The position numbers and the translations under genes are program-made. The notes under the pieces were generated by a model. It made no database searches. It saw only the letters and a list, made by a program, of their open reading frames with translations, and was not told the DNA's origin. From Candidatus Absconditabacterales bacterium (lineage in GTDB: Bacteria; Patescibacteriota; Gracilibacteria; Absconditabacterales; Absconditicoccaceae), in NCBI GenBank assembly GCA_041908765.1, contig JAYREU010000039.1, positions 7,618-71,617 of the forward strand: a stretch of 64,000 nucleotides of DNA, read 5' to 3'. Within the stretch, counting starts at the first letter, position 1. The number at the start of each line of letters is the position of its first letter. Shown here in pieces: positions 3,487 to 56,050 of this stretch.

Positions 3487-3720
3487 TTATCCCGGGAATG
3501 AACGTGCGTAGTCGATAACGGAGTGACCACGCTTTTCATGATCCGCAGGCGATTCGCCAGGGAGTTTTTTGAACCCCTGAGCTTCAAGCTTCTCTGAGCT
3601 TGGGTTGACATAAGGTTGATGATAGATAGGATTGGTTGCCCAATCAATCATGATATAAGCCATGATGTAAATGCACATCCCTTGACACCAGAACTTTACT
3701 GCGCTTAAAAAATTTTTCAT
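3487..3720 (-). CDS. small hypothetical membrane protein
   Basis: 77-aa ORF with ATG start, TAA stop, one hydrophobic helix and its own terminator. Confidence 0.4.
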   Translation of the reverse strand: MKNFLSAVKFWCQGMCIYIMAYIMIDWATNPIYHQPYVNPSSEKLEAQGFKKLPGESPADHEKRGHSVIDYARSFPG

Positions 3721-12701: not shown

Positions 12702-12741
12702 CAAATAATCAAATAAACAAATAGCCAAATTAACAAATCTG
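12702..12741 (+). repeat. phased CAAAT octamer array, copy 3
   Basis: The units are caaataat/caaataaa/caaatagc/caaattaa/caaatctg at 12702, 12710, 12718, 12726 and 12734. The array lies 7 nt from the gdh start codon. Confidence 0.6.
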
Positions 12742-12935
12742 TTCCCCGTCATTGCGAGGAGCCAAAGGCGACGTGGCAATCCACCTATTGGTTACCTGGA
12801 TTTGCTATCCCTTCAGGGACTTCCCCTGCGAGGACTATGCCTTGACACTCAGAATGACATGCATACTTCAGCTCTTTATTTTCGTACTCTATCCAAAATA
12901 TCTCCACAAACAACACCAAATCTCCCTCATTTTTT

Positions 12936-12964
12936 TTGACAGAAACAATGTTTTCATGTATACT
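12936..12964 (+). promoter_or_regulatory. consensus sigma70-like promoter (TTGACA-17-TATACT) for the DGR target gene
   Basis: ttgaca at 12936-12941 and tatact at 12959-12964. Confidence 0.6.
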
Positions 12965-13002
12965 TCATAGTGGCCTATTTCTCTCTTTATTTCCACCGTG
13001 TG

Positions 13003-16000
13003 ATGTTGAAAAAACAACCAAACGCGCCTCAGCAAGATGCCAACAAACATGACACCAATCTACGTTCTGCGATAGACACTTTCCCAAGTCGAAGAGAAGT
13101 AGCAAAGTTTTTGATTACTGAAAAAAGAAAAGAACTAGGTGATATATTGGAAAAAGGAAAAACCACCAAAAAACTTACCAATGAACAAAAAGGAAATCTC
13201 CATGAAGTACTCCAACATATCGCTACTGCACAGCTCGATGATGAACAAACACTGACTTTGTTGCAAGAGTATCTCGGATCTCTTGCGACGACTTCGACAC
13301 CAAAACAACTGCTTTCTCTTGCACAAAAACTTGAAGCACTCAAGCAAGGCACACTTGCGACAGATACCTGAGTATCTCGTCTCCAAGAACTCTTGCAAGA
13401 TCCAGAGTTTATCACTCACTATCAGGAATCGTATAAAGAACACGCTGAAGGCATCAAACATCTCTCGCATGGTGCAGAATTGTATCGTGCGCCACGTATT
13501 GATTTGCAAACTCTCACCGCGTGAAGTATCACTACCAAAGCGCCCAAGACCAAACAAGGCACGACACTTCCTCTCAAACATATCACTGATGAAGAGAGGA
13601 TGGCAAGTATTGAAAAACTCCCCGCCAAACAATCTTTATTTTCGTCTGCAGACCTTGCTTATTTGGGGCTTACCAAGACGACAATTTCACTCGAGACACT
13701 CGATACCAAAATACAACAGATCAAGAGCTATCTCGATGCGTTACAACTCCATATGTATACCTCGTGACAACTCACGAGTGACTATCCTAGTGCCATAAAC
13801 ACCGAGATACAAACGCTTCGTACCCTCATCACCAAACTTGAAATAGCTAAACAACTCCACCTCGATACACATGAAGTCGTTGCCTATGAGCGTCGACATC
13901 GTCTGCAGTGATTGAAAAAAGAACTAGATACAACATGACTTGCTTCTACCGAAACTGTCACCAAACAATACGAAGAAATGCGTCAACATATTTTCGCAGG
14001 TTGGTCGGTATTACTCACGGGTCCCGTCGGTACCGGTAAGACGGTCGGTGCGAGAAAACTTGTCGCAGAACTGATCGCAACTAAACTGGCTCGCTTGCAA
14101 AAACAACTCAAAGATTTGCCACCAGAAAACATTTCTCCCCCTGTGAAGCACCCTAAAGGGCATAAAGGGGAGTGAGAGGGGGTTTTAAAGCCATGATCAG
14201 CACAAACAGAACTCCTGTACTCTTCTTCTGAAAAAAGCTCTGAAGGACAGGATAAGGGGAAGGTCTCGAGCGCTACGAGTGACAGAGAACAAAAACAACT
14301 TACTCCACAGCAAAAACTTGAAAAAGAGATTGAAAGCCTCACCAAACTTCAAACAGATCCTCCCTTCATCAACGGTAACGCAGAGACCACCGTGAGACAG
14401 TTCGAATCAGTGGTGAGTCAGGTCAAGACCTGAAATGGCCATCTTCTTGAATATCTCCCTGGACCACTCACGCAGTGTATGAAATATGGACTTCCGCTCA
14501 TCATCGATGAAGCCAATCGTCTCAGTCCCGATGTGTTGTCAGCGCTCAAAGGCGAACTTGCCAAGCGTGCAGGTACCAGTTTCACCGACAAAAAAACAGG
14601 CGAGTCCTTCATCATCCAAAAGTTTTCAATTATCCTCACTGCCAACGAAGATCATCATCATGACACCACCAAAAAATTTCAAGATCAGATTGAAAGAGAG
14701 TTCCATAGAGTGACTATCGGCTATCTGCCTCCTGCAGAGTATGCACAAATTATTTCTGCCAAGACAGGGTGATCACTTGGAGTGTTTACAGACATCTGAA
14801 ACGACGCGTGGACAGCAAACATAGATGCTACTGATGCCAGCAAGACTATAGGCGGTATCTTGCCAAGACTCCTCGAAGCACAACAACTCATCATCGCGAG
14901 CTATGCCAAAAACGGCACCAAATACGATATTACCCTCTGATGAACTACCTCCAAACAACAGATCAGTAGTGCAATATGGGATACCAAACGTTTCTTGGAA
15001 CTGCGAAATACGGGACCAGATGATCGACATGATCGCATCAAATATCCGACACTGACCGACTATATCAAAGCCAAAGTGATTGCTTTCATCAAGACTCAGA
15101 TCAGCGACAAAGACCAAATGGTCCTGTGTGTGATTTTCAACAAACTTGGCATCCTTGACGCGAATGATACGCCTGCGCTTGCAGATCGCAATGTATGCGT
15201 CCACCTCAAATGAATCGATTTCAATCCCAATCTTTCCTTGTCTCTCCGTGATGCTCCCTCATCGCACGCACGCATGCTCACGACTCCGTACCAACGAGCG
15301 ACGGCAGATCAGTATGGTGATAGTTATCCTGATATGCCCTTCGATAATCCGCATATCGCCTATGCACAGCTCGCCAGTGAACTCATGACACGTGTACAAA
15401 ATAACTCTACCAAAACCTTACTTCGTCAGATTACCAAAGACGGAGCGTTGCGAAACGAAAAATTACCGAAGCTCGTAGAAGCACTCTGTACCGAAGGGAC
15501 TGATGCATATCTTGGCTTGTATACATACTTATCATCAACACCAGACACGCTGGAGAAGTTTGGCGAACTGCAACAACTCCTCAAAGATAAAAACTTCCTC
15601 CATACCAAAAAAGCCGAGATGCTCACGAAGATCGAGAGTGTCCTTCCCACTCTCCCTTTGGGAGAGGGTAGGGGTGAGGGCAATGACTCAACGCCTCATT
15701 CAGAACAGACCCTCCGTGATCTCCTCACCACCCTTGAAACAGACAACAGACAACTTCCCCTCGACGAACTCACGGACGCACTATTAGCAATCGATGAAGA
15801 TCTTTTTTTGTCGATAGTCACCATCGTAGGAGGAGCTGACATCCTAGACCCAAGTTGACGTCTCCTGAGCAGATATGATCTGATAGATCACTCTCGTAGA
15901 AAAGCAGCGGAGGAAGAGGCAAAAGAAAAAGCCAAGTGACTTGATCAGCAGTCAAACAAGCAACTATCTCCTTGATCGATCCTACAGCTCACCTCATGAC

Positions 16001-17433
16001 CAGAATTTAACCGTATCACCAAATACCGCCAAGACTTCCTCACGCAGATCAAAAATACAACCGAGACACCGCAGAGATTGAAGCAGATCGGTGACGCGAT
16101 GATCGCAAGTGGTGAGTTTGTCCTGTGACAAAAAGCAGGACTGGCCGTTGGCTATTTCAACATTCCTTGATTTTCAGCAGGTTTCGCGACGAGCGATCGT
16201 ATACGAAATGAAAACACTCCTGATCCAGATGACAATCTCTACGCTAGAGACTACGACAACAAAATCCTAGCACCAGATACTATCTACCAACCCAAACTCA
16301 AAGCACTCAGAAGTGATTTGAGAAAAGCCCGAAAAGACCCGATCAAAGCATCTATAAAACCTCTAGAATCACAAGGCATCATCTATGACCAGCAAGGCGA
16401 TATCAAAAAACTTATAGCGCTACTCATGACACAAAAATGATTGGACGAATCTGACGCACTCGCCTTGTATATGTATCTGACGGGACAATATGGTTACTAT
16501 TGGACTTGACAATACTCTTGAAATAGTCTTGGTGTTGTCAGACTCTTTGATGCTCTTCGTCGATTCAATTCGGACGATTACGATGATAGCAACTGCTCGT
16601 TGTTGTTCGCCGTGCCGAGCGGTAGCGAGGTTGCCTCCCCCGACGCACCTGAAATACAGGCACATCGTGCCTGGTGGAACGACAACATCACGTGAATAGG
16701 AACCGCACTTTTGGATCCCACCAAGACGAAGTGAATATTAACTTCGAAGCCCAGAAAGATGGACTTCCCCGATGAGCAATCATGCAAAACAGAACTGATA
16801 GACCGTATGGACAAGCGAGCAGCGAAGCATATCCGTCATATTTCCAACCCCTACAGTCTCGGTGGTTTCGCGACACAGATCACCCATCCAGAGTTCAACT
16901 CAGGCAACCCCCGTAACTTCTTCGAACCGCAGCTCGCAGACTTCAATCGTATCACCTGAAACACCGCTACCGATAATCTCTCTATGCAACAGTATGACTA
17001 TGCTAACCAAACGAAACTCTGAGTGAAGTTACGTAGTATCAGAGGAGATATGAATACACCTGACAAGCTCCCCGATATGATCTACGAAGATGAAACCAAC
17101 AAAACAGGTAAACAAGAAAAAAACCTCACCAAAATCTACTTGCAAGAAGTGAAGAAAAAAATCCCCACCTATAACGCACAGCCCCAGGACGAGTTGATCA
17201 AACTCATGCAGGTCATTGGCGAAGATCTTTGACTCTCTCCAGAATCATGAAAAGATCAACCCTTGCGCAAAGCAGCCCTGATGTATCTGTTCTCCGTGGC
17301 GGGACGATACTGGACTTGACAATACTCTTGAAATAGTCGCGGCGTTGTCTGGCTCATTGATGTTGTTCGCAGTTTCGATGCGTACGATTCTGATTATTTC
17401 CGCTGCTCGTTGTTGTTCGCCGGAGATGCATAG
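13003..17433 (+). CDS. DGR variable protein: large AAA+ (MoxR/AAA_5-like) ATPase with two C-type-lectin-like variable modules
   Basis: A single frame-1 ORF has no TAA or TAG from about 12712 to TAG at 17431, with many TGA=Gly. Walker A GPVGTGKT is at 14020-14043, Walker B LIIDEANR at 14497, and sensor-1-like IILTAN follows. VR1 is internal and VR2 is at the C-terminus (...CSLLFAGDA*). Alternative start: GTG at 12970. Confidence 0.8.
15647..15681 (+). repeat. GC-rich palindromic element ('GEGRGEG' family), in frame within the DGR target
   Basis: ccactctccctttgggagagggtaggggtgagggc, read as PLGEGRGEG. Confidence 0.6.
16527..16612 (+). repeat. DGR variable repeat VR1 (internal, more diverged)
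   Basis: 86 nt, colinear with the TR. By my manual alignment, 10 of the 23 TR adenines are substituted, and there are 5 non-adenine differences. Confidence 0.7.
17337..17422 (+). repeat. DGR variable repeat VR2 (C-terminal)
   Basis: 86 nt, colinear with the TR. By my manual alignment, 15 of the 23 TR adenines are substituted, with only 2 non-adenine differences. The 3' 20 nt (ctgctcgttgttgttcgccg) are identical to the TR and contain no adenine. Confidence 0.85.
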
Positions 17434-17456
17434 GAAGTTGCGTAGCGACTGACTAT

Positions 17457-17474
17457 ATTCCGCGCTAGCGGAAT
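17457..17474 (+). other. hairpin downstream of VR2 (candidate DGR target-recognition stem-loop)
   Basis: attccgc-gcta-gcggaat: a 7-bp stem with a 4-nt loop, 35 nt after the end of VR2. Confidence 0.45.
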
Positions 17475-17498
17475 GTCCCCCCCAACGCGCGAAGCGAC

Positions 17499-17533
17499 TC
17501 CCTCTACCTTTGGGAGAGGGTCGGGGTGAGGGT
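17499..17533 (+). repeat. GC-rich palindromic element ('GEGRGEG' family), intergenic copy
   Basis: ctccctctacctttgggagagggtcggggtgagggt. Confidence 0.6.
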
Positions 17534-17732
17534 TGTATTTTTTCTGCACATCAGTATCAATCTCCTTGCTAGATCTTACAAGGTCTAGCGAGTCTGGGGG
17601 GACTCAATCTGCTCCGCCACTGGTAGCTTTGTGCTGTCAGTAGTATAAGATGTGCTATGTGGATTTGTTCCAATAGTTATCTTCGCTGACCTACGGGGAG
17701 ACCTGTATCGTCATGAGTTAGTGTGGGGTGAA

Positions 17733-17818
17733 TCGCGGCGTTGTCAGACTCAATGATGATAATCGCAGATTCGATACGAACGATAACGATGATAACAACT
17801 GCTCGTTGTTGTTCGCCG
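17733..17818 (+). repeat. DGR template repeat (TR)
   Basis: An adenine-rich 86-nt copy of the VRs (23 A; reads as AAC/AAT/GAT codons), located 72 nt upstream of the RT start codon. Confidence 0.85.
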
Positions 17819-17890
17819 AGACTGATCTTCTCCTTTCTTTCACTTTCCGCCTCCTGTAGGTGGGAGTGATTTTTTGTTTTCGTTCGCATC

Positions 17891-19069
17891 ATGCAACTTG
17901 TTTATGCAGATCTTCACTACGCCTACCAGCGTGCACGCAGAGGTAAATCCAAGAAAAAAGAAATCATCGCCCGAGAAGCTGATCTGGAAAAAAATATGCA
18001 ACAATTATACAAAGATATTTGTGCATGAAACTATCAGATAGGAACTACCAAAAGATACATCGTAGCAGATCCCGTCGTCAGAGAGATCGTTGCGTTATCC
18101 TTTCGTGACCGTATCGTGCAACACCTAGTCTCGCATTATCTGATGCCGTTATTTGAATCTCAGTGGATACATGATAGCTATGCGAATAGAGTAGGGAAAG
18201 GGACGTTGTTTGGTATCCGTAGAGTAGACAAATTTATGCGTTCTTGTTCTCGCAACTATACAGTAGATGCACGAGTTTTGAAACTTGATATTCAGTCATG
18301 TTTCATGAGTATTTCGAGGACACTCGTACGACAACTTGTGACGCGCCGTCTCTTTGCTTGTAGAGTAGGCCGATCCAAGGAAATTATCTTATCATTGGTG
18401 CACAAGATATTGTTTCATGACTACGTGACTTGACGAGAGGACCATACTATCGCATCCTTGAGAAAAATCCTCCCGGTACACAAAAGTATGTTAGCCTGTC
18501 CACCAAACACCTGACTCCCTCTGGGTAATCTCACGAGTCATCTGTTTTCCAATATCATCTTGCATGAGCTAGATCTTTTTATCAAACATGAGTTGCACAT
18601 ACACTACTATGGCAGATATGTAGACGATTTCGTCTGTATGCACGCAGATCAAGGCTATTTGAAATCTTGTATTGCAAAGATCGAATATTTTTTGAGCACT
18701 CAGCTTGGACTGCATATCCATCCTCGCAAGATATACTTCCAGCATTTCACCAAATGAGTCCCATTTCTGTGAGTAGTCATTAAGCCCTACTGTAGACTGA
18801 TTGGACGCAAAACGATTCGTGCACTACAAAAGCTTCCTTCACTGATTCCGCCACGTATATCACTAGCGGACGGCGTCCATATTGGGCAATCCATCAATTC
18901 TTACTTCGGACTTGTCCGTCATCACGATAGCTTCTGCCTCAGAAAATCCTTGATTTCTGCACTCCCACCCAATCGGTATAATTACCTCCGTGTCCGTCCT
19001 GGGTATAGTTCTGTGAAGCCGAGGGTGAGGGAGGTGCAAAACACACAAAATCTCTTGCAAAAAAATTAA
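17891..19069 (+). CDS. DGR-type reverse transcriptase
   Basis: 392 codons after joining three fragments through TGA=Gly. Motifs include SFRDRIVQH, IHDSYANRVGKGTLFG (the DGR RT hallmark SYAxRxGKG) and YGRYVDDFV (YVDD at 18617-18628). Confidence 0.9.
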
Positions 19070-20415: not shown

Positions 20416-22791
20416 CTACACACTCGTTTCGAGATGTTCTATCAGCAACTCCTGAATATGTTGTCCTAGCTCGTGAGGGGAGTCACAGACTTCACCATAG
20501 CCGAGAGCGTTTGCCTGTGGCTCATCTTGTTTCGCGCCAAAGAGATCAAGGATAGGACTACCGCTCGAGGTGATACCGAGTCCACAGGTGATGATACCGA
20601 GGTCACGGGCTTTTTTGATCTGTTGTTGCATCTTTGTAGCATCATCACTACCTCCATCAGACATGAGGAGGAGGATTTTTTTTCGACGTCAGGATTTGAT
20701 CTGTTCGAGATAGCGGGTGTGCTCCTCAGGAGTATGGTCATGAACAGCTGCATCTTGGAGCTGTTTGGTATACGCTTTCATAGCCACGAAATCGCCCGTA
20801 GATGAGCTGGCGATCTGCAGTTTATGATTTGCGACGAGGAGTTCTTTGGTGGTAAGTTTGGAACTACGCTTTCGTAAGGTGTGTGTTGTTCATCACGAAA
20901 ATAATGATGCTGAACTGAAGATATCTATCCCAGAAATATGTGCATCATCAATCTCTTCTTGCAACCTCGAGAGTGCATAGCCGACGAGAAGGGAGTTGAC
21001 CCTTTGATCATAATTTTTGGTTCATTTGGTCATTGATCAAGACCCATCAGCAATGAGATCAAACTCGAATCCATTGAGTTCTTTTTTTTCTATTTCTCTA
21101 CGTTTATTTTGTTCTCGGATGTGCGGATCGCCGTCTTGATTATCGGTGAAAAGATTTACTATCTCATCGGTATACATAGCACCGTTACTTTTCTCTCGTT
21201 TGACGGGGCCACGATACCCAGGGAGGTGAGTGGCTTTGAGTGTTTGGAGACGACTGAGAATATCTTGCGTGATGAAGTTGAGAATATTACGTCATTCACT
21301 ATCGGTGAGTGCTTCGATAATTGATTTTATCTGTTCTCGATCGTCAAGTTGTTGGAGCAGAAACTCTTTTGTCTTGTCGAACGTTTTGTGCTTGGTGTTG
21401 AAATTTTCGTTCGCCCGATCTACGAGTTCTTCTTTTTTATGCTCGAGGAGGGGATCATCAGCTTTGAGATCAAAGGTTTGGTTGAAGGCTTGTTCGAGTT
21501 TTTGGTCTTTCTCAGTCTGCGGAGTTGCGTTGTGGGTGAGTTGAGCAAGGAGTTGTTTGAGGTCAGAAGGGGTGGGTTGAGATAAATCCCCCGGCTCGTT
21601 TCACTCGCCACCCCCTTTATCAAGGGGGAAACTCTGTGGATCGACGTTGATGCCTGCTTGTTCGAGGAGATGCGGGATGGTGCGAGGGGTGCCGGTGGGA
21701 GCTGCGCCTTCACCTTCATTCTTCGCCTTATCGCTCTCCTTATCCTTTCCTTCAGATTGCTTTCCCGAAGGAGAGGGAGGTTGTTCTGCTTGCCCTTCAT
21801 TATCCTTAGTTTTGGATTCTTGCTTTCACTCAACCGTTCATTCAGCCTTGCCTTGAGTTTGATTTCCATCTTGTGCTCACCCTCACCCCTGCCCTCTCCC
21901 AACCGTTCATTCGGCTTCGCCTCATTCACTAGGAGAGGGAGTATTAGTGGGTTCCTTATCCTTCGCCTTATCATTCTCCTGTTCTTCTAGTTCGAGGTAG
22001 ATGTCAAAGAGCTGAATCATCGCGGGATATCTCATCGGGAGCGTGTTGAGTTGTTTATGCGTTCGTACATCGCTTGCAGATCTGATGAGTAGTTCGTTGT
22101 TGTCGATATAAGATTGTACTTCTTCATCGACGAGAGGTCGTGATCCAGTAGTTTGCCCTTTCAGAATGGCTCGAGCGAACTGCTCGTGGAGAGGATTTTC
22201 TTTTTTGGTGCCGTCTTGGAGGATTGTGTATCTGAGATCTGTCTGTGGAACAGTTCGTTCGAGATAGTTGTCACGCATATAGGGTGCAAGGGTGTTGGTT
22301 TGCTTCATATCTGCTGACCATTTATCTACTCGAATATCTCTGATGATGTTTTCGAAGTGTCTCCACTTTTCACCATAGGTGCGCAGAAGATCTTCTCTTA
22401 GGTGCTGTGTTGTATTTTTGTAGTTCGTAAGTCTGACGGTACGTGGTCTTGGAGTTATTTCGCAGGATGATTGATCTGCCATCAGCTGTCCGTACTCTAC
22501 CATATGTCCGATCTCGTGGACGAGAATTTGTAGGATATGTCATTTCTCGAGAATGAAATTACTTCCTTGTTCTTTGACGAGTTGTGAAATATATTGCGAA
22601 GTGAATTTAGGATTAAAAAAAATCGTACTCTTACCGTGTTGCATTCGTGCGATGTTTTGATTGTTCGTTGCAATCTGAAAAGTGATACCCTTCATCTGGG
22701 TAATGGTGTGCAGAATACTTTGAAACTCACGTTCGAACTCTGTGGTCGTCCGCTCAGAGATATCGAGGTGAGTGGTGGGAGTATTTTTCAT
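20416..22791 (-). CDS. HExxH metallopeptidase-like N-domain plus von Willebrand A (MIDAS) C-domain protein (DUF2201-like architecture)
   Basis: One minus-strand frame is open for 791 codons. HEIGH lies within 22501-22518, followed by a Gly/Glu/Lys-rich linker. The MIDAS motif DGSGSM is at 21034-21048 and the vWA C-terminal part (LLLMSDGGSDD) follows. TAG stop at 20416. Confidence 0.8.
21877..21900 (-). repeat. GC-rich element ('GEGRGEG' family) inside the vWA-protein linker
   Basis: caccctcacccctgccctctccc is the reverse complement of the family consensus. Here it is read in a different frame, as GRGQGGGG, using two TGA codons. Confidence 0.5.
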
Positions 22792-22797
22792 GCAATA

Positions 22798-22826
22798 AGT
22801 ATACTCAAAAGAAGATATATTGTCAA
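22798..22826 (-). promoter_or_regulatory. consensus promoter (TTGACA-17-TATACT), probably giving a leaderless mRNA
   Basis: On the minus strand, ttgaca is at 22826-22821 and tatact at 22803-22798. Only 6 nt separate the -10 hexamer from the ATG at 22791. Confidence 0.6.
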
Positions 22827-22928
22827 TTTTTTTGTGCAGAAGTCAACTACAAGAACTGCCTTCTTTCCTTGCATCTCATTTTATTTTCCCTATTATGAAG
22901 CACGTGAAGAGTTTAGGTGATACTTGTA

Positions 22929-23078
22929 CACCTCTGCAAAAGTCCCAAAAGTGCATATGTACTTTTGAGGACGCCTAAAGAGGTTTCTCAAGAAAGCGTT
23001 GTTAGCTGATCTTCCAGGGCTGTAATACACCTTGTAACGCTAGGAATGTAAAGCAAAGTTTTAATTTTGCAGAGCTTA
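22929..23078 (-). ncRNA. roughly 150-nt structured repeat, copy 1 (candidate ncRNA or MITE)
   Basis: The reverse complement aligns along its whole length with 31133-31283. The terminal inverted repeat is ctctgcaaaa/ttttgcagag and there is an internal hairpin. Confidence 0.5.
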
Positions 23079-49268: not shown

Positions 49269-51707
49269 TTATGAGTTCTCTAGTTCATTTTTATAGATAT
49301 GTTTGTAGATTTCGATGAAAATAAACATGATGACCGCAACAGCTAATGCATCCAACCAATACCAACCAATTGGTACAATCGCCAAGAATTTTCATAATCC
49401 AGGTAGCATATAGGGAGCTGCTAAAAGCGCAAACCCTCATAGTACAGAAATGAGCAACCAAACGTTGTTGAAGGGATTCTCTTTCCATACCGGATCACTG
49501 AGCGTCCTCACGGAGAATACATAAATGAGCGAGGCAATACCGAATGATGCAAAAGCCACTGAACGAGCGAAAATAATATCTTTGGTATCTAGGTATACTC
49601 GTACAAACAACACGAAACTACTAATTGCTCCAATAGTAGATACCAATCAAATTAATTGTTTCATCCAAGGCGCGACGAGATATTCTTTGGGTGATCTGGG
49701 TTTTTTCTGCATGATTCATTTTCTGATAGGGTCTACGGTGAGGGCAATATTGGGGAAACCGTCAGAGACGAGATTAATCCACAAAATTTGTGATGCTGAA
49801 ATAGGCAGCGGATACCCTGTGAGGATTGCAATCAAGATAGCTATAATTTGCACGAATGCATCACAGAGAAGATACAGAATAATCTTTCTGATATTATCAA
49901 ACATTCAACGTCCTTCTTCGACTGCAGATACAATAGTAGAGAAACTCGAGTTCATGAGGATAAGATCAGCGGATTCTTTTGCTACTTCTGTGGCTTCAGC
50001 AACGACGATACCTATATCTGCTTTCTTGAGGGCTGGTGCATCGTTGACACCGTCTCCCATCATAGCGACTATTTCTCCATCATCTTTGAGTGCTTGTACG
50101 ATACGCATTTTTTGGGCTGGTTGCGTCCTTGCGAAGAGTTTGACATGACTATCTTTCTCTAGCCACGCATCAAGCTCAGCATCACTCATGGCAGCCAACA
50201 TATCGCCAGTCATCATCGAGTCATCTCTTACCGCTACACCTAATTTTTCCATGATAGCGCGAGCTGTACCAGGGTAATCTCCCGTGATGACGATGAGTTT
50301 GATACCTGCTTCATGCGTCTTTTGTAGTGCTTCTTTGACATCCTCTCTGACGGGATCTGCCAAACAGATGATGCCTTCCCAAGTCAGTCAGCTAGTTACT
50401 CACTCATGCGATATTTTAGTGATCGCATCTGAGATCTCTTTCTTCGCACAGGCGATGAGTCTATATCCTTGGTCTGTTAACTTATCTATGATAGCCTTGG
50501 TATCTGCTATTTCTTTTGCAGAGAGTGTAGACCATTGTATAAGATAGTCTGGGGCTCATGTTACATAGAGTGTCTTTTGATTATTGGTGGTATACAGACT
50601 CGCTGCATATTTGCGTTCGGAGGCAAAGGGTACTTTATCAAGCAACTGAGCATCATCGGTCACCGGAGATTGTTGCTGTGCTCGCGTGATAATCGCTTTG
50701 GAAACCGCATTATCATCATCGGTAGTATACATAATTTCCTTGGCAATCGATATTTTGTCGCCAATAATATCAACGACTTCCATCACTCCATGCGTGAGAG
50801 TCCCTGTTTTGCCTGAACAAATCACGGTGACTCAACCGAGCGTTTCTGCAGAGACGAGGTTTTTGACGAGACCTTTTCTCTTGAGAATTCTTTGCATACC
50901 AATAGTGAGTACTATCGTCAACGCCACCAATAGCCCTTCGGGAATAGCTCCAACAGCCAATGCTACTGCAGTAGTGAAGATATCCACAGGAGATTGTCCA
51001 CGAATGAGTCCTATCACGAAAACGACAAGTACAATTCCTACTACTACCCGTGTGAGTTGCTTGCTGAAATATTGTAATTGCTTTTGGAGTGGCGTGACGG
51101 TTTCACCTCATTGGAGACTACTGGCAATTTTACCGAGCTCTGTGGTGGCTCATGTTTTTTGAATTTCTACATACGCTGATCCAGAAAGGACGACGGTGCC
51201 CATAAATGCCCCATCGGCTATATTTTTTTCCACGGGTAGTGATTCTCAGGTGAGCATGGCTTCGGAGACAGTGAGTTTGGTATTTTCTCTCACGATACCA
51301 TCTGCGGGAATTTTGCAACCACTTTTACACAAGATAATATCTCCTGGTACGAGTTCTTTGGTAGGAAGGTCTATGAGTTTTCCATCTCTCAGGGTGGGGA
51401 TAGTGGGTTGGAGGAGGTCTTTGAGTGCTTGTAAGGCTTTGCCCGCTTTACTTTCCTGATACCAGCCAAGTACGGTATTGAGCACTACAGAAAATCAAAT
51501 AATAACGGTGTCTTCATAATCACCCAAAAAGAACGTAACTCCTGCCGCTACGAGGAGAATATAGACGAGCGGACTTTTGAGTTGCTCTAAGACTATCTCG
51601 AGCTGGGTAGGCGGTCTTTTTTCAGGGAGCATATTGAGTCCGAAGCGCTGTTGGAGGTCATGGACTTGAGATGTGGTTAGCCCGCTTAGTGTAGTGGTTG
51701 TTCCCAT
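49269..51707 (-). CDS. P-type cation-transporting ATPase (type II-like) with an aberrant phosphorylation motif
   Basis: TGES (Gly from TGA), ICSGKTGTLT in place of ICSDKTGTLT, VITGD and GDGVNDAPAL. Eight track fragments share one frame. TAA stop at 49269. Confidence 0.85.
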
Positions 51708-51850
51708 GGAGAGTGCAAAAAAATAAGTAGCATAATAGTAGTCCAAAATAGAGGAAATTGCAAAATAATTTGTGGAAAAGAATATGCGACAATTGCCTAG
51801 AAATTCATTTGAAATTGGCTATACAAAGACAATTTATCATTTCTTTGCCC

Positions 51851-54800
51851 ATGAGTGATGCACGTTTCTCACCTAATTTGCTTTCCGCTACCCAGGATAA
51901 TGCATATTACGCATTGACAATGTTTCCCTACCCATCTGGAATAGGCCTGCATTGCGGGCATGCAAGTATTTTTACGATAAATGACGTCGTGGCGAGATTT
52001 CAACGTATGCAAGGTAAAGTTGTCTTCAATCCCTTTGGTTTCGATGCATTTGGTTTGCCGACCGAGAACTATGCGATGGAACGTGGAATTCCTGCCTACG
52101 AAGTGACCCAAGAGAACAAAGCATTCTTTATCAAACAAGTGCAGGCGTTAGAGATTAGCTTTGACTATGAAAAGGTGATTGATACCTCAGATCCTGTCTA
52201 CTACAAACGAACGCAATGGATATTCGCTGAGCTTTTCAAGGCAGGACTTGTCTATCGCGACACGCTCCGAGTCAATCGATGTCCGAGCTGTCAAACGGTA
52301 TTAGCAAATGACCAAGTAGTAGAAGGCAAATGTGAGCGTTGCAAGACGCCCATTATTCAAAAAAAGCACCCGCAATGGTTTATCAAAATAACCGCTTATG
52401 CGGATAAGTTACTGGCAGATCTCGATCTTATCGATCGACCAGAAGAAACCAAAACAGCGCAGAGAAATTGGATTGGGCGTTCTGAGGGCGCAGAGATAGA
52501 TTTTGTGATTGAAGGACACGATGACAACAAAATTACCGTCTTCACCACACGTCCAGACACGATCTATGGTGTGACCGCTCTGGTAGTAGCACCAGAAGTA
52601 ACTTCACTGGATGAGTACGTCCCAGCAGATCATCTCGATGCGCTCCATGCGTATAGAAAAACCACGCTTGCCAAAACTGCTGTCCAAAGACAGCAGGGTC
52701 TCGAAGAAAAGTCGGGAGTCTTTTCGGGCATCTATGCATTACATCCACTTACAGGTGAACGTATCCCTGTTTGGTTTGCAGACTATGTCTTGCCCGATTA
52801 TGCAACGGGTGCAGTGATGTTTGTGCCAGCTCATGATGAGAGGGATCGGGAGTTTGCAAAGAAATACGGGATGCAGGTAAGGCAGGTTATTGAACAAAAA
52901 GACACAGATACACCCCCTTTCTTTTCGGGAGAGGGCAAGAAGATGGAAACTGAAAACTCCCCTCTCCTTTCGGAGAAGGAACAGGTCACCACTAAAGAAT
53001 TCCCTCTCCTTTTGGGAGAGGGTCAGGGTGAGGGTGTTCTGCATAAAAACAATATCTACCATACCGTTGAAGAAAAAGAAAAACTTATTACCTACGCAAA
53101 GGAACTCAGAAAAGCCTGAACAAATGGTGAAAAATTTGTATGGGAGTTTTTGAGAAATAGATGATATAGTAATCTCAAACGAAGAAGACAGCATCCATTA
53201 GGTAATTATATAGCTGATTTTTATTGTCACGAATACAAGCTTGTACTTGAATTAGATGGCCCACAACATGAATGACAAACATGATATGATGCCAAAAGAG
53301 ATGCATATATGGAAGATCTATGACTTACTATTGTTAGAATTAGCACGGATAAATTGTATGAAGAGCCTGGTTTGTTGTTTCAGTATATCGAGGAACATTT
53401 ACCCTCACCCCATCCCTCTCCCAAAGGAGAGGGGGATCGTGCATATACCTGATCATGAAAACTTATTAACTCATGACCCTTTGACGGACTCGATAATCAA
53501 GAAGCCAAGAAGAAAATCATCGCACACCTCGAGACGCTAGGTGTCGGTCGTGCTAAAGTGAGTTATAAATTGCGTGATTGGTCGGTAAGTCGCCAAAGAT
53601 ATTGGGGGAGTCCTATACCTGTCTATTATGATGTACCTGATGACCAGGTCGCATTTTATGCCTACCAAGATGCAGCGAAAAAACACAAAGATGGTGAGCC
53701 TACGCTTACCAGGCAAGTCATACAGGTGATTGTCAAAGATAAAAATTCAGATCAGTATGCTTGGATTGAGTGGAAAAGCGATGGTGATACCAGCGGATTT
53801 TTCGGGGGTATTGAAGAAGGGGAAGACATGCATGAAGCTATCAAACGTGAATTGCGTGAAGAAGGAGGAATAATCGATGTAGCTATCAAACAAGAGATTA
53901 TGGAGTATCACTGTAAGTTCTTTCATCCTACCAAACAAAGAAATCAGTATAGCATTTGCCATGCTTGGTATGTAGAAGTAGATCGCACTAGTTGTCAGGA
54001 GATAAGTAATGAAGAAAAAATGAAACATGAGATAGTCCGATTGACTGCTGATGAATTCTTACGCATTTCCAAGAATGATACCAGCATCTATGTCGTCAAT
54101 CAGCTCTTGGGTAACTCACAAAAGGCATGGCCACAAGCCAATAGATACAACGACCACAATCCTGTTCCTGAAGATAAAAAAATCCCTCACCTGATCCCTG
54201 ATGCAGAACTTCCCGTAGTACTTCCATTGGATCTCGAAAATTATAAACCAAGTGGTAAGTCACCTCTTGAAGATCATCCGACCTTTCCGGAGTATCACAA
54301 GGACGGTAAGGTTTACCGTCGTGAATGTGACACCTTGGACACCTTCATGTGCAGTTCGTTTTATTTCTTGAGATTCTTGGATCCGACCAATCCTGATCAA
54401 TTAGTCCGCAAGGAGGTCGCTGATGCACGGTTGCCTATTGAGTTGTATACAGGTGGCAAGGAACATACGGTGGGGCATTTGCTGTATGCGCGCTTTATTC
54501 ACAAATTTTTGTATGATCAATGATATCTCTCCTGTCCTGAACCTTTCCAAAAATTGGTACATCAGGGAATGGTACTGTGATTTGATGGGCGCAAAATGGG
54601 GAAGAGATATAACAATGGTATCGATCCTATTGAAATGGTGGAACTCCACGGTGCAGACGCACTCAGGACCTATCTGATGTTTATGGGACCGGTGGATCAG
54701 GATAAGACGCGAAATGATAATGCACTCCATGGTGTCAAAAAGTTCCTCGAAAGAATAGAAAGAATTTTGCAACAACCTCGATTTGGGCAAGGGAAACAGG

Positions 54801-55261
54801 CGGTTACCTCGGCAGTGCATCAAACTATCCAAGGTGTTACTGATGATTTTCATGCGCTCAAGCTCAATACTGTCGTGAGTAAATTGATGATATTGACCAA
54901 TACAATCTATGATCAACAGGCAGCAACTAGCGATGATATGTGTATCATGACTCGTTTACTCGCACCGCTTGCGCCTAGTTTGGCAGACCGTTTGTGGGAA
55001 GCACTGGGACAAACAAATGATGTGCAATATGCGCCTCGACCTCTTGTAGACTCAACCAAAATTATCATCGAACAGATTAACCTCCCTGTACAAATAAATG
55101 GTAAAATGAGAGGAACCTTGCCTGTAGCTCCTGGACTGTGAGAGCAGGAGATATTGGGATTACTTCACACACATGAACATTTCGCATGATATCTAGTGGA
55201 TAAAACGATACAAAAGTCTATCTTTGTACCAGATAAGATAATTAATATTATCGTTAACTAA
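51851..55261 (+). CDS. leuS: leucine--tRNA ligase with two large in-frame insertions (1136 codons)
   Basis: MFPYPSG..LHCGH (HIGH class), [21 protein letters not shown] (KMSKS) and a C-terminal [11 protein letters not shown]. All fragments (51758-53119, 53558-54523, 54596-55141) are in frame 2, and no TAA or TAG occurs in between. Confidence 0.9.
53000..53436 (+). mobile_element. DUF559 (Vsr-like endonuclease) cassette bounded by 36-nt inverted repeats, inserted in frame in leuS
   Basis: Left repeat: ttccctctccttttgggagagggtcagggtgagggtg (53000-53036). Right repeat: accctcaccccatccctctcccaaaggagaggggga (53401-53436). The interior encodes [58 protein letters not shown]... Confidence 0.65.
53633..54181 (+). 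other. Nudix hydrolase domain inserted within LeuS
   Basis: A perfect Nudix box [23 protein letters not shown] lies at 53804-53872, between the conserved LeuS blocks SPIPVYY and [11 protein letters not shown]. Confidence 0.75.
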
Positions 55262-55285
55262 TCTTTTACCTTATTCTTTTCTTAT

Positions 55286-56050
55286 ATGATTACATTTCTT
55301 CTCGCAAATCTGTGGATTCTGATTGTAGTCGCTTTATTGATGGGCATCAAAATTATCAATGAATATCAAAGAGGTATTGTTTTCACACTTGGTAGATTTA
55401 CTAAGGTTTTGTGACCTGGTCTCAAGGTAGTTATACCAATCATTCAAAGAGTAGTAATTACTGATATCAGAGAAAAAGCGGTCGATGTTCCTTCACAGGA
55501 AGCAATGACAAAAGATAATGTATCTTGTAGTATCAATGCAGTGATCTACTATAAAGTCAAAGCTCTTGAAGTGGAAAAATCTCTTATTAATGTCAAAAAT
55601 ATCGACTATGCAATGAGTCAGTTTGCTCAAACTTCTATGAGAAATATTGTAGGACAATTTGAGCTTGATCAATTGCTCAGTGATAGAGAAGCCGCAAGTG
55701 CGAAAATCAAAGAAGTAATTGATGAAAAATCCAATAGTCGATGAGTCGATGTCTTGGCAGTAGAGATCAAAGATATCAACCTTCCTGAGAATCTCAAAAG
55801 AACTATCGGTAAACAAGCAGAAGCAGAAAGAGAAAAGAGAGCTAAAATTATTACTTCTGAAGGAGAATTGGCATCTGCTGATAACCTCAAAAGAGCTGCA
55901 GAACTCCTAGGAACTGCGCCAGGTGCGCTCCACTTGAGAACGCTACAAGCTATCAATGATATTAGTTCTGATCAATCAAATACCACAGTTTGGATGGTGC
56001 CTCTAGATGTGCTCAAAGCAATTGAATGATTTGGTAAACAAATGAAATAG
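55286..56050 (+). CDS. SPFH/band-7 (stomatin-like) membrane protein
   Basis: N-terminal TM helix, then INEYQRGIVFTLGRF, TKDNVSCSINAVIYYKV and EAEREKRAKII. Confidence 0.85.

Follow-up and report, generated by a model that had tools for sequence, protein, structure and literature searches.

How does a nuclease-fold domain come to lie within the coding sequence of an essential tRNA synthetase, and how is it tolerated there? The question is raised by a 64,000-nt stretch of a recoded genome, that of an uncultivated Candidatus Absconditabacterales bacterium (contig JAYREU010000039.1 of assembly GCA_041908765.1; the whole stretch is called the window hereafter), in which leuS, the gene of leucyl-tRNA synthetase, contains an in-frame DUF559 domain bracketed by inverted copies of a GC-rich repeat. 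We name this repeat, an element of about 39 nt made of a hairpin and a G-tract part, HT. Our results favor the view that the insert is a mobile cassette of DUF559 and HT that LeuS tolerates, in translated form, in a surface loop and that spreads by recombination, possibly stimulated by the nuclease, and we regard this as the probable explanation. The terms 'selfish', 'translated' and 'nuclease' are applied to it on the basis of comparative evidence.

The insert in leuS and its reading frame

The gene, the insert and the domain lie as follows.

51851-55261, plus strand: leuS (leucyl-tRNA synthetase), 1136 codons plus stop; TGA is Gly, CGA/CGG probably Trp
52892-53440, plus strand: whole in-frame insertion at the 'site A' loop, in the C-terminal part of the CP1 editing domain; 549 nt, 183 codons
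53084-53395, plus strand: DUF559 (PF04480) nuclease-fold domain, amino acids 412-515; five of its Gly codons are TGA

The leuS frame has no TAA or TAG, holds 12 TGA codons, and is open only when TGA is read as Gly. This code, together with the reassignment of CGA/CGG to Trp, was inferred for Absconditabacteria by Shulgina and Eddy (PMC8629427), and one of the closest LeuS homologues in the database is named Candidatus Absconditabacterales. When aligned with LeuS of standard-code organisms, the TGA codons of the window fall on invariant-Gly columns, and six of the eight alignable CGA/CGG codons on invariant Trp columns (for example CGA at 52208, 52277, 52436, 54710 and 55037; CGG at 54428). CGA appears to encode Trp in the genome of the window, so that a motif first given as KRRRQHP probably reads KWRRQHP. 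The product of leuS matches the Pfam families tRNA-synt_1 (class I catalytic), LeuRS editing domain and Anticodon_1, and all LeuS motifs are intact in the open frame.

The left LeuS flank ends at 52891 and the right flank, AYTGSGKLINS, begins at 53441. Comparison with homologues shows that the insert takes the place of a native loop of 8-11 amino acids, the extra segment amounting to 175 amino acids relative to homologues with an empty site. Its length is a multiple of 3, and TAA and TAG are absent from it in the leuS frame but number 3-9 in every one of the other five; among shuffles of its 120-codon core, 0.03% lack an in-frame TAA/TAG. The original prediction of an in-frame insertion read with TGA as Gly therefore held, as did its placement in the CP1/editing region: site A corresponds to residues about 364-374 of the LeuRS of T. 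thermophilus, inside the region covered by crystal constructs of the isolated editing domain.

The domain itself is full-length, as predicted. It matches PF04480 with E=2e-27 and 95.7 bits (cut-off 20.6) over profile positions 3-106 of 109, and it has 14 of the 14 family-invariant residues (E, RQ, Y-ADF, E-DG, H, D..R, R) defined from an alignment of 18 family members. The sole solved structure found by sequence was 3HRL, an uncharacterized DUF559 structure (E=4e-16). For structural comparison we used an AlphaFold2 model of the insert of an orthologue, P0018, which has a core of pLDDT 84-92 and HT-coded flanks below 50. Its best Foldseek matches in the PDB were 3HRL (TM 0.74) and then 3R3P (TM 0.69), the catalytic domain of the group I intron homing endonuclease I-Bth0305I and the closest characterized fold. 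The insert is thus predicted to have a restriction-endonuclease-like alpha/beta core. The Vsr family PF03852 gave no match at E<=0.01 in the Pfam search, and the Vsr structures 1VSR and 1CW0 matched the model weakly in Foldseek (TM 0.35-0.38, E about 0.5). Biochemical data concern the related Vsr and I-Bth0305I rather than the DUF559 family itself.

The DUF559 core is compositionally foreign to leuS. Its GC content at third codon positions is 0.18-0.28, against 0.32-0.41 for the host leuS in four genomes, making it more AT-rich, and overall GC, about 0.45 outside, is only about 0.33 within the insert of the window. The share of TGA among Gly codons is 5/9 in the core versus 5/59 in the rest of leuS (p=0.002), and about 24% in the long open reading frames (ORFs) of the window. 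A Gly conserved in the family is encoded by TGA both in the window and in the related locus L081, and the aromatic position of K(W/F)RRQ is CGA in the window and TGG in another relative, L090. The use of TGA at a family-conserved Gly and of CGA at the aromatic position shows that the ORF evolved under the code of its host.

HT repeats in leuS and in other genes

The HT copies of the window, scored with a covariance model, are the following.

52999-53037, plus strand: left HT, hairpin CCCTCTCC-TTTT-GGGAGAGG plus tail GTCAGGGTGAGGGT; 55 bits, E about 1e-11
53399-53437, minus strand: right HT, inverted; 51 bits, E about 1e-10
52912-52949 and 52960-52980, plus strand: two degenerate tandem HT copies 5' of the left HT; 14.8 and 9.4 bits
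15645-15683, plus strand: solo HT, 50.9 bits; in frame (LPLGEGRGEG) in a 1575-codon ORF at 12709-17433
17497-17535, plus strand: solo HT, 52.4 bits; 75 nt downstream of the second variable repeat of a diversity-generating retroelement (DGR)

The HT consensus is a 9-bp hairpin, CCCTCTCCC-nnn-GGGAGAGGG, followed by GGGGTGAGGG. The hairpin of the window copies reads CCCTCTCC(C)-loop-(G)GGAGAGG, continues into the G-rich tail GGGGTGAGGG, and folds as an 8-bp DNA stem (-8.9 kcal/mol in the fold prediction for the left HT). Two inverted arms of 25 nt, 53011-53035 and 53401-53425, show 88% complementarity, each beside an 8-bp hairpin. The inverted GC-rich repeats noticed at the outset are hence well-scoring copies of HT. 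Two further hairpins noticed upstream (52913-52935 and 52958-52980) are real and turned out to be the degenerate copies, whose tandem spacings of 45 and 42 nt are multiples of 3.

HT can be part of a coding sequence. Its consensus is free of stops in five of the six frames, and in all six when TGA is Gly. It lies in frame in ORFs at 15645-15683, 52999-53037 and 53399-53437, and encodes, in the frames used, the peptides PLPLGEGxGEG and PxPxPLPKGEG; the left and right copies each translate as 11-residue peptides. In total the window holds four full HT copies, two of them solo, and a single DUF559.

The first protein search with the insert returned free-standing homologues only (about 45% identical), and missed the relatives embedded in leuS. 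These were found by other means. A LeuS protein search gave P0018 (965 amino acids, with PF04480), whose DNA is identical in three metagenomes (L081-L083), and a search with the 36-aa TGA-free core of the insert gave P0140 (1120 amino acids, locus L090). Outside the insert, at most one residue separates L081, L082, L083 and P0289. In L081-L083 and L090 the DUF559 domain occupies exactly the loop used in the window, between an HT on its left side and an inverted HT on the other, the hairpin of the right HT having an enlarged loop in L090. A metagenome scan with DNA patterns (4 loci) added L092, a distant recoded LeuS with a core identity of 42-43%; a metagenome scan with protein patterns gave no match. 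In L092 the DUF559 domain is at a different loop, at the start of the CP1 editing domain, with degenerate inverted HTs, and site A holds a Nudix domain.

Identity among the three DUF559 domains at site A is 62-66%; they share about 45% with free-standing homologues and 43-45% with the L092 copy. All invariant residues are kept in the four DUF559 lineages. In the four independent leuS inserts the frame is free of stops only in the leuS phase. These comparisons mean that leuS received at least two independent insertions. The site-A lineage, for its part, may either be old and conserved or have spread between lineages.

Cassettes also occur outside leuS. Three leuS copies are at site A and that of L092 is at another leuS site; elsewhere, cassettes lie in hsdS and methylase genes. 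Arrays of HT with an almost identical consensus surround free-standing DUF559 genes in two unrelated standard-code contigs, in one case adjoining a TonB-dependent receptor gene (L084) and in the other between hsdM and hsdS (L085). In other standard-code bacteria, HT pairs flank an in-frame DUF559 in hsdS (L095) and in a gene for an Eco57I-type methylase (L096). The latter has head-to-head (-)(+) HT dimers on both sides, resembling REPIN doublets. The polarity of the pairs varies, from (+)ORF(-) in the window and L085 to (-)ORF(+) in L084 and L095. The HT stem and G-tracts are invariant across copies, with no covariation, which points to a constraint on the sequence itself, beyond pairing alone.

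The association of HT with DUF559 is specific in our data. A scan of about 880 kb from 80 unrelated loci that served as negative controls, among them Bacillota and other distant leuS loci from a pattern scan for the LeuS N-terminus, gave 0 matches, and none were found in two DUF559-free leuS relatives (L086 and L088), so that HT was found only in DUF559 loci. HT-coded peptides are present in 50 of 167 DUF559 proteins (30%) versus 3 of 119 LeuS controls, which are much longer proteins. Restriction-modification families were matched in 17 of the 20 long DUF559-containing proteins scanned: HsdS (7 cases), Eco57I/MmeI/N6 methylases, N6_N4 methylases, a Type ISP enzyme and HsdR. For several of these proteins, the insert interrupts the match to the host domain model. 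A check for other repeat-flanked DUF559 units was thus positive in L081, L090, L092, L095, L096, L084 and L085, and gave no second unit in the window itself. These data suggest what looks like a widespread mobile element across unrelated bacteria. They also fit, as genes bracketed by inverted repeats would, a previous report that 'DUF559 domain-containing protein' is enriched 14-fold among predicted targets of programmed inversion (PMC9881135).

Some observations on individual HT copies stand apart from these results. In L085, an imperfect direct repeat of about 33 nt (2780-2825 and 3586-3630) brackets the DUF559 gene and its HT array and matches the 3' end of hsdM, so that both the end of hsdM and the overlapping start of hsdS are preserved; it looks like the footprint of a cassette insertion. 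The G-rich strand of HT has four G-tracts, G3-N3-G3-N2-G4-N3-G3, an observation on sequence only, which might form a G-quadruplex in competition with the hairpin; the tail could pair with the C-arm, one T:T mismatch remaining. A weak HT-like match (18 bits, 21885-21939, minus strand) in a Gly/Glu/Pro-rich low-complexity stretch of the ORF at 20416-22974 may be a decayed copy or due to chance.

The two solo copies lie in or near the DGR, which spans 16498-19069. Its variable repeats (16498-16612 and 17308-17422) are at the end of the 1575-codon ORF, its template repeat is at 17704-17818, and its reverse transcriptase ORF (PF00078, E=9e-16) ends at 19069. The solo HT at 15645-15683 is thus in frame inside the target ORF of the DGR. 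In the DGRs of other organisms, a hairpin is found at the position that corresponds to the solo HT at 17497-17535, beside the second variable repeat.

Occupied and empty alleles and their explanations

Close relatives carry different contents at the same site. Three loci, L081 with DUF559, L088 with a Nudix domain and L086 with an empty site, are 85-98% identical in nucleotide sequence as far as GTGATT on the left side and again from GCATATAC onward. Between these junctions lie the 570-nt cassette in L081, about 490 nt of Nudix in L088 and the 24-nt native loop in L086. The protein cores of the group are 90-93% identical, and in a neighbor-joining tree of LeuS cores P0018 clusters, at this level of identity, with P0029 and P0025 (one Nudix type), P0033 (another Nudix type), P0022 (a 40-aa insert) and P0027 (no insert). 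Empty-site alleles, proposed as a check on the original prediction, are also found in the closest backbones to the LeuS of the window, P0019, P0020 and P0021. The proposal of a mobile cassette in a permissive CP1 loop was thus borne out by occupied and empty alleles, but not as a rare oddity, since the loop is a general hot spot and restriction-modification genes are commonly occupied in frame elsewhere. All of the proposed checks that were run favored the original prediction.

We propose that the cassette took the place of a short loop native to the CP1 editing domain and that the segment is read through as part of LeuS, the HT peptides providing flexible Pro/Gly-rich linkers. With HT free of stops and coding for linkers, the nuclease domain would hang off a surface loop and leave the synthetase intact, and presumably functional, without RNA or protein splicing. 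Transfer between leuS alleles would most likely take place by homologous recombination across the highly conserved flanks, which fits the clean replacement of the loop with no target duplication, and a break made by the encoded nuclease may trigger it in a homing-like manner. The presence of solo HT copies elsewhere in the genome suggests that the repeats are also mobilized alone, like REPINs by RAYT. Triggering of this transfer (homing) and a REPIN/RAYT-like action on the HT ends are both candidate roles of the predicted nuclease. That a second site in leuS is used, and that restriction-modification genes are hosts, speaks against one strict target.

A wider hypothesis is possible, and we hold it tentatively: DUF559 and HT might form a cross-phylum class of mobile elements that colonizes ORFs without splicing, HT doing double duty as DNA structures used by the nuclease and as translated linkers. 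With the same reserve, this class might account for many DUF559 'fusions' of restriction-modification enzymes, for the enrichment among inversion targets, and probably for the whalefall-1 motif discussed below, the Absconditabacteria being a case where the expression of leuS is borrowed.

Several points weigh against the cassette explanation. We know of no DUF559 protein with a known activity, target site, or transposition or homing intermediate. The identity among site-A DUF559 domains (62-66%) is close to that among LeuS cores (57-66%), which also fits old vertical inheritance with losses. In-frame cases detected in protein databases are biased to open frames, and a single copy of DUF559 accompanies the four full HT copies of the 64 kb seen. 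The DNA comparison of L081, L086 and L088 shows no visible target-site duplication at the leuS junctions, where the native loop is replaced. Finally, the site-A loop also holds Nudix and other domains that lack the hairpins, so insertion there need not require the machinery of the cassette.

The conservation of DUF559 might instead reflect domestication, with the domain now kept for the benefit of the host, for example to bind tRNA or other nucleic acids or to repair DNA while tethered to LeuS, and the hairpins being relics of its arrival. We find this unlikely. It agrees with site-A domains that are as conserved as the LeuS core or more, and with the retention of all invariant residues in four lineages. 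The same loops hold Nudix, nucleotidyltransferase-like, hydrolase-like and PDDEXK_3 domains in relatives, and DUF559-like folds occur as RNA-binding proteins in apicomplexan mitoribosomes (Foldseek matches 9i05 and 9g6k). Yet, DUF559, Nudix and empty sites are patchily distributed over backbones with 90-93% identity, the composition of the core is foreign, and HT in the three leuS copies remains near the cross-phylum consensus, which is not expected of relics.

A transposon in the manner of REPIN/RAYT seems improbable to a similar degree. Here DUF559 would bind HT, excise or copy the unit, and insert it almost at random, the tolerant sites being those that survive. The enrichment of DUF559 among predicted inversion targets (PMC9881135) fits this account. 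So do the inverted repeats around the nuclease gene, which also occur as solo and dimer copies, the two different sites hit in leuS, and the mostly dispensable restriction-modification genes that are the other hosts. However, three of the four leuS cases are at exactly the same site, the leuS junctions show no target-site duplication, and the native loop is replaced rather than split. Enzymes of the PD-(D/E)XK/Vsr fold are not known to act as lone transposases; TnsA needs TnsB.

It is very unlikely that the segment is removed as an intron- or intein-like element to give a mature LeuS without the insert, even if inverted HT copies could pair in the transcript and join the two junctions. The original prediction had noted no intein splice motifs, and indeed Pfam gave no Hint or intein family, and the junctions (...DTDT|PPFF and ...GEGDR|AYTG) lack the N-terminal Cys/Ser/Thr and the terminal His-Asn. 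An Rfam search over 51500-55500 at E<=1 gave no group I or II intron, only sub-threshold whalefall-1 matches and one snoRNA noise match. A spliced element would need neither a length that is a multiple of 3 nor an open frame in the leuS phase, both of which are seen in the four inserts. An artefact or decay is hardly credible: repeats could in principle mislead an assembler and GC drops inside the insert, but the same architecture in independent assemblies from different samples (L081, L082, L083, L090 and L092) rules out a chimera, and the intact motifs and open frame speak against a leuS pseudogene. Neither these two nor a failure to match the DUF559 profile or an in-frame TAA/TAG, all named beforehand as contrary signs, was seen.

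Known systems and the insertion hot spots of LeuS

The cassette shares traits with several known systems. Rickettsia palindromic elements, like other intragenic MITEs, are short palindromes found in frame in unrelated genes, including essential ones, and translated in surface regions (PMC10969869). This behavior is matched by the HT-coded linkers and by the solo HT at 15645-15683, which are stop-free and in frame. However, the Rickettsia elements have no protein-coding cargo and are restricted to that genus, whereas HT brackets a nuclease domain of 120 amino acids and is shared by unrelated bacteria. REPIN/RAYT systems (REPtrons) associate a single nuclease/transposase gene with inverted GC-rich hairpin repeats, which are also dispersed as solo copies or head-to-head dimers (PMC3116915, PMC3337134). 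This recalls DUF559 flanked by inverted HT, with dispersed HT (two solo in the window, dimers in L096). Yet, RAYT is an HUH Y1 transposase and DUF559 has a Vsr/PD-(D/E)XK-like fold; the Pfam search gave no match of the insert to Y1_Tnp (HUH Y1, IS200/IS605-like). In addition, REPs are extragenic, HT is stop-free inside ORFs, and the repeat sequences differ.

Homing endonucleases offer another parallel. I-Bth0305I, which has been grouped with DUF559 (PMC3424549), has a catalytic fold related to that of the P0018 insert model (3R3P, TM 0.69 as given above). The cassette, too, is found at a conserved site of an essential gene, with occupied and empty alleles in close relatives (L081 versus L086 and L088). 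It differs in that no intron or intein removes it, the nuclease being presumably translated within the host protein, and in that the site also holds non-nuclease domains. Inteins with homing endonucleases are similar as in-frame nuclease insertions in essential housekeeping proteins, but the insert has no Hint domain or splice-junction residues and is presumably retained in the mature protein.

The closest Rfam family to HT is whalefall-1 (RF01762), a candidate non-coding RNA known from metagenomes only, with no function assigned (PMC2864571). HT shares with it a CUCUCC-loop-GGAGAG hairpin and the 3' GGGUGAGG tail. The scores, at 17-25 bits (21.1 and 21.6 in the window, up to 24.8 in L084), are below the gathering threshold of 37, and the 24-nt spacer in the Rfam model has no counterpart in HT. 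The occurrence of HT inside ORFs and in either orientation suggests a DNA element rather than an RNA gene.

In-frame palindromes, hairpin-flanked nuclease genes and nucleases in essential genes were thus each known separately, and we found no description of a DUF559-HT cassette in the literature searched. What appears to be new is their combination, a Vsr-fold nuclease with conserved and translatable terminal repeats, unspliced in an essential synthetase and, across bacteria, in restriction-modification genes, and there is a fair chance that it represents a distinct class of elements. If so, DUF559, a very large orphan family, would gain a context as a nuclease tied to a conserved DNA repeat, and HT DNA and empty-site leuS would be experimentally tractable substrates. 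Besides introns and inteins, there would be a third way for a nuclease to reside inside an essential gene, translated in place with linkers made from its own repeats. Many annotated multi-domain 'DUF559 fusions' in restriction-modification enzymes and synthetases may then be insertions.

The LeuS of the recoded clade has four insertion hot spots (P0018-P0066 and L092), whose content differs between backbones that are 90-93% identical.

Site A: DUF559, at least four Nudix types, a nucleotidyltransferase-like domain, an uncharacterized domain, short inserts
Site B: a Nudix or a nucleotidyltransferase-like domain
Site C: an alpha/beta-hydrolase-like domain
Site D: PDDEXK_3 (P0058), DUF559 (L092), solo HT (P0024: PSPLSPLPTASLGEG)

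The LeuS of Absconditabacteria-like bacteria would thus be a hot spot where domains are rapidly gained and lost. It may serve as a marker of strains and show protein engineers which sites naturally permit insertions. The LeuS of the window has a second in-frame insertion, at 53633-54181 on the plus strand, after PIPVYY: a NUDIX domain of about 183 amino acids (PF00293, E=9e-8), without HT, and shared with P0020, P0030, P0037, P0042 and P0140. At site D, a short insert in P0018 (amino acids 216-232, SSLSKEGNPQGGGF) and in P0140 (amino acids about 197-213, SLIKEGDPQGGGF) may be a different small intragenic element.

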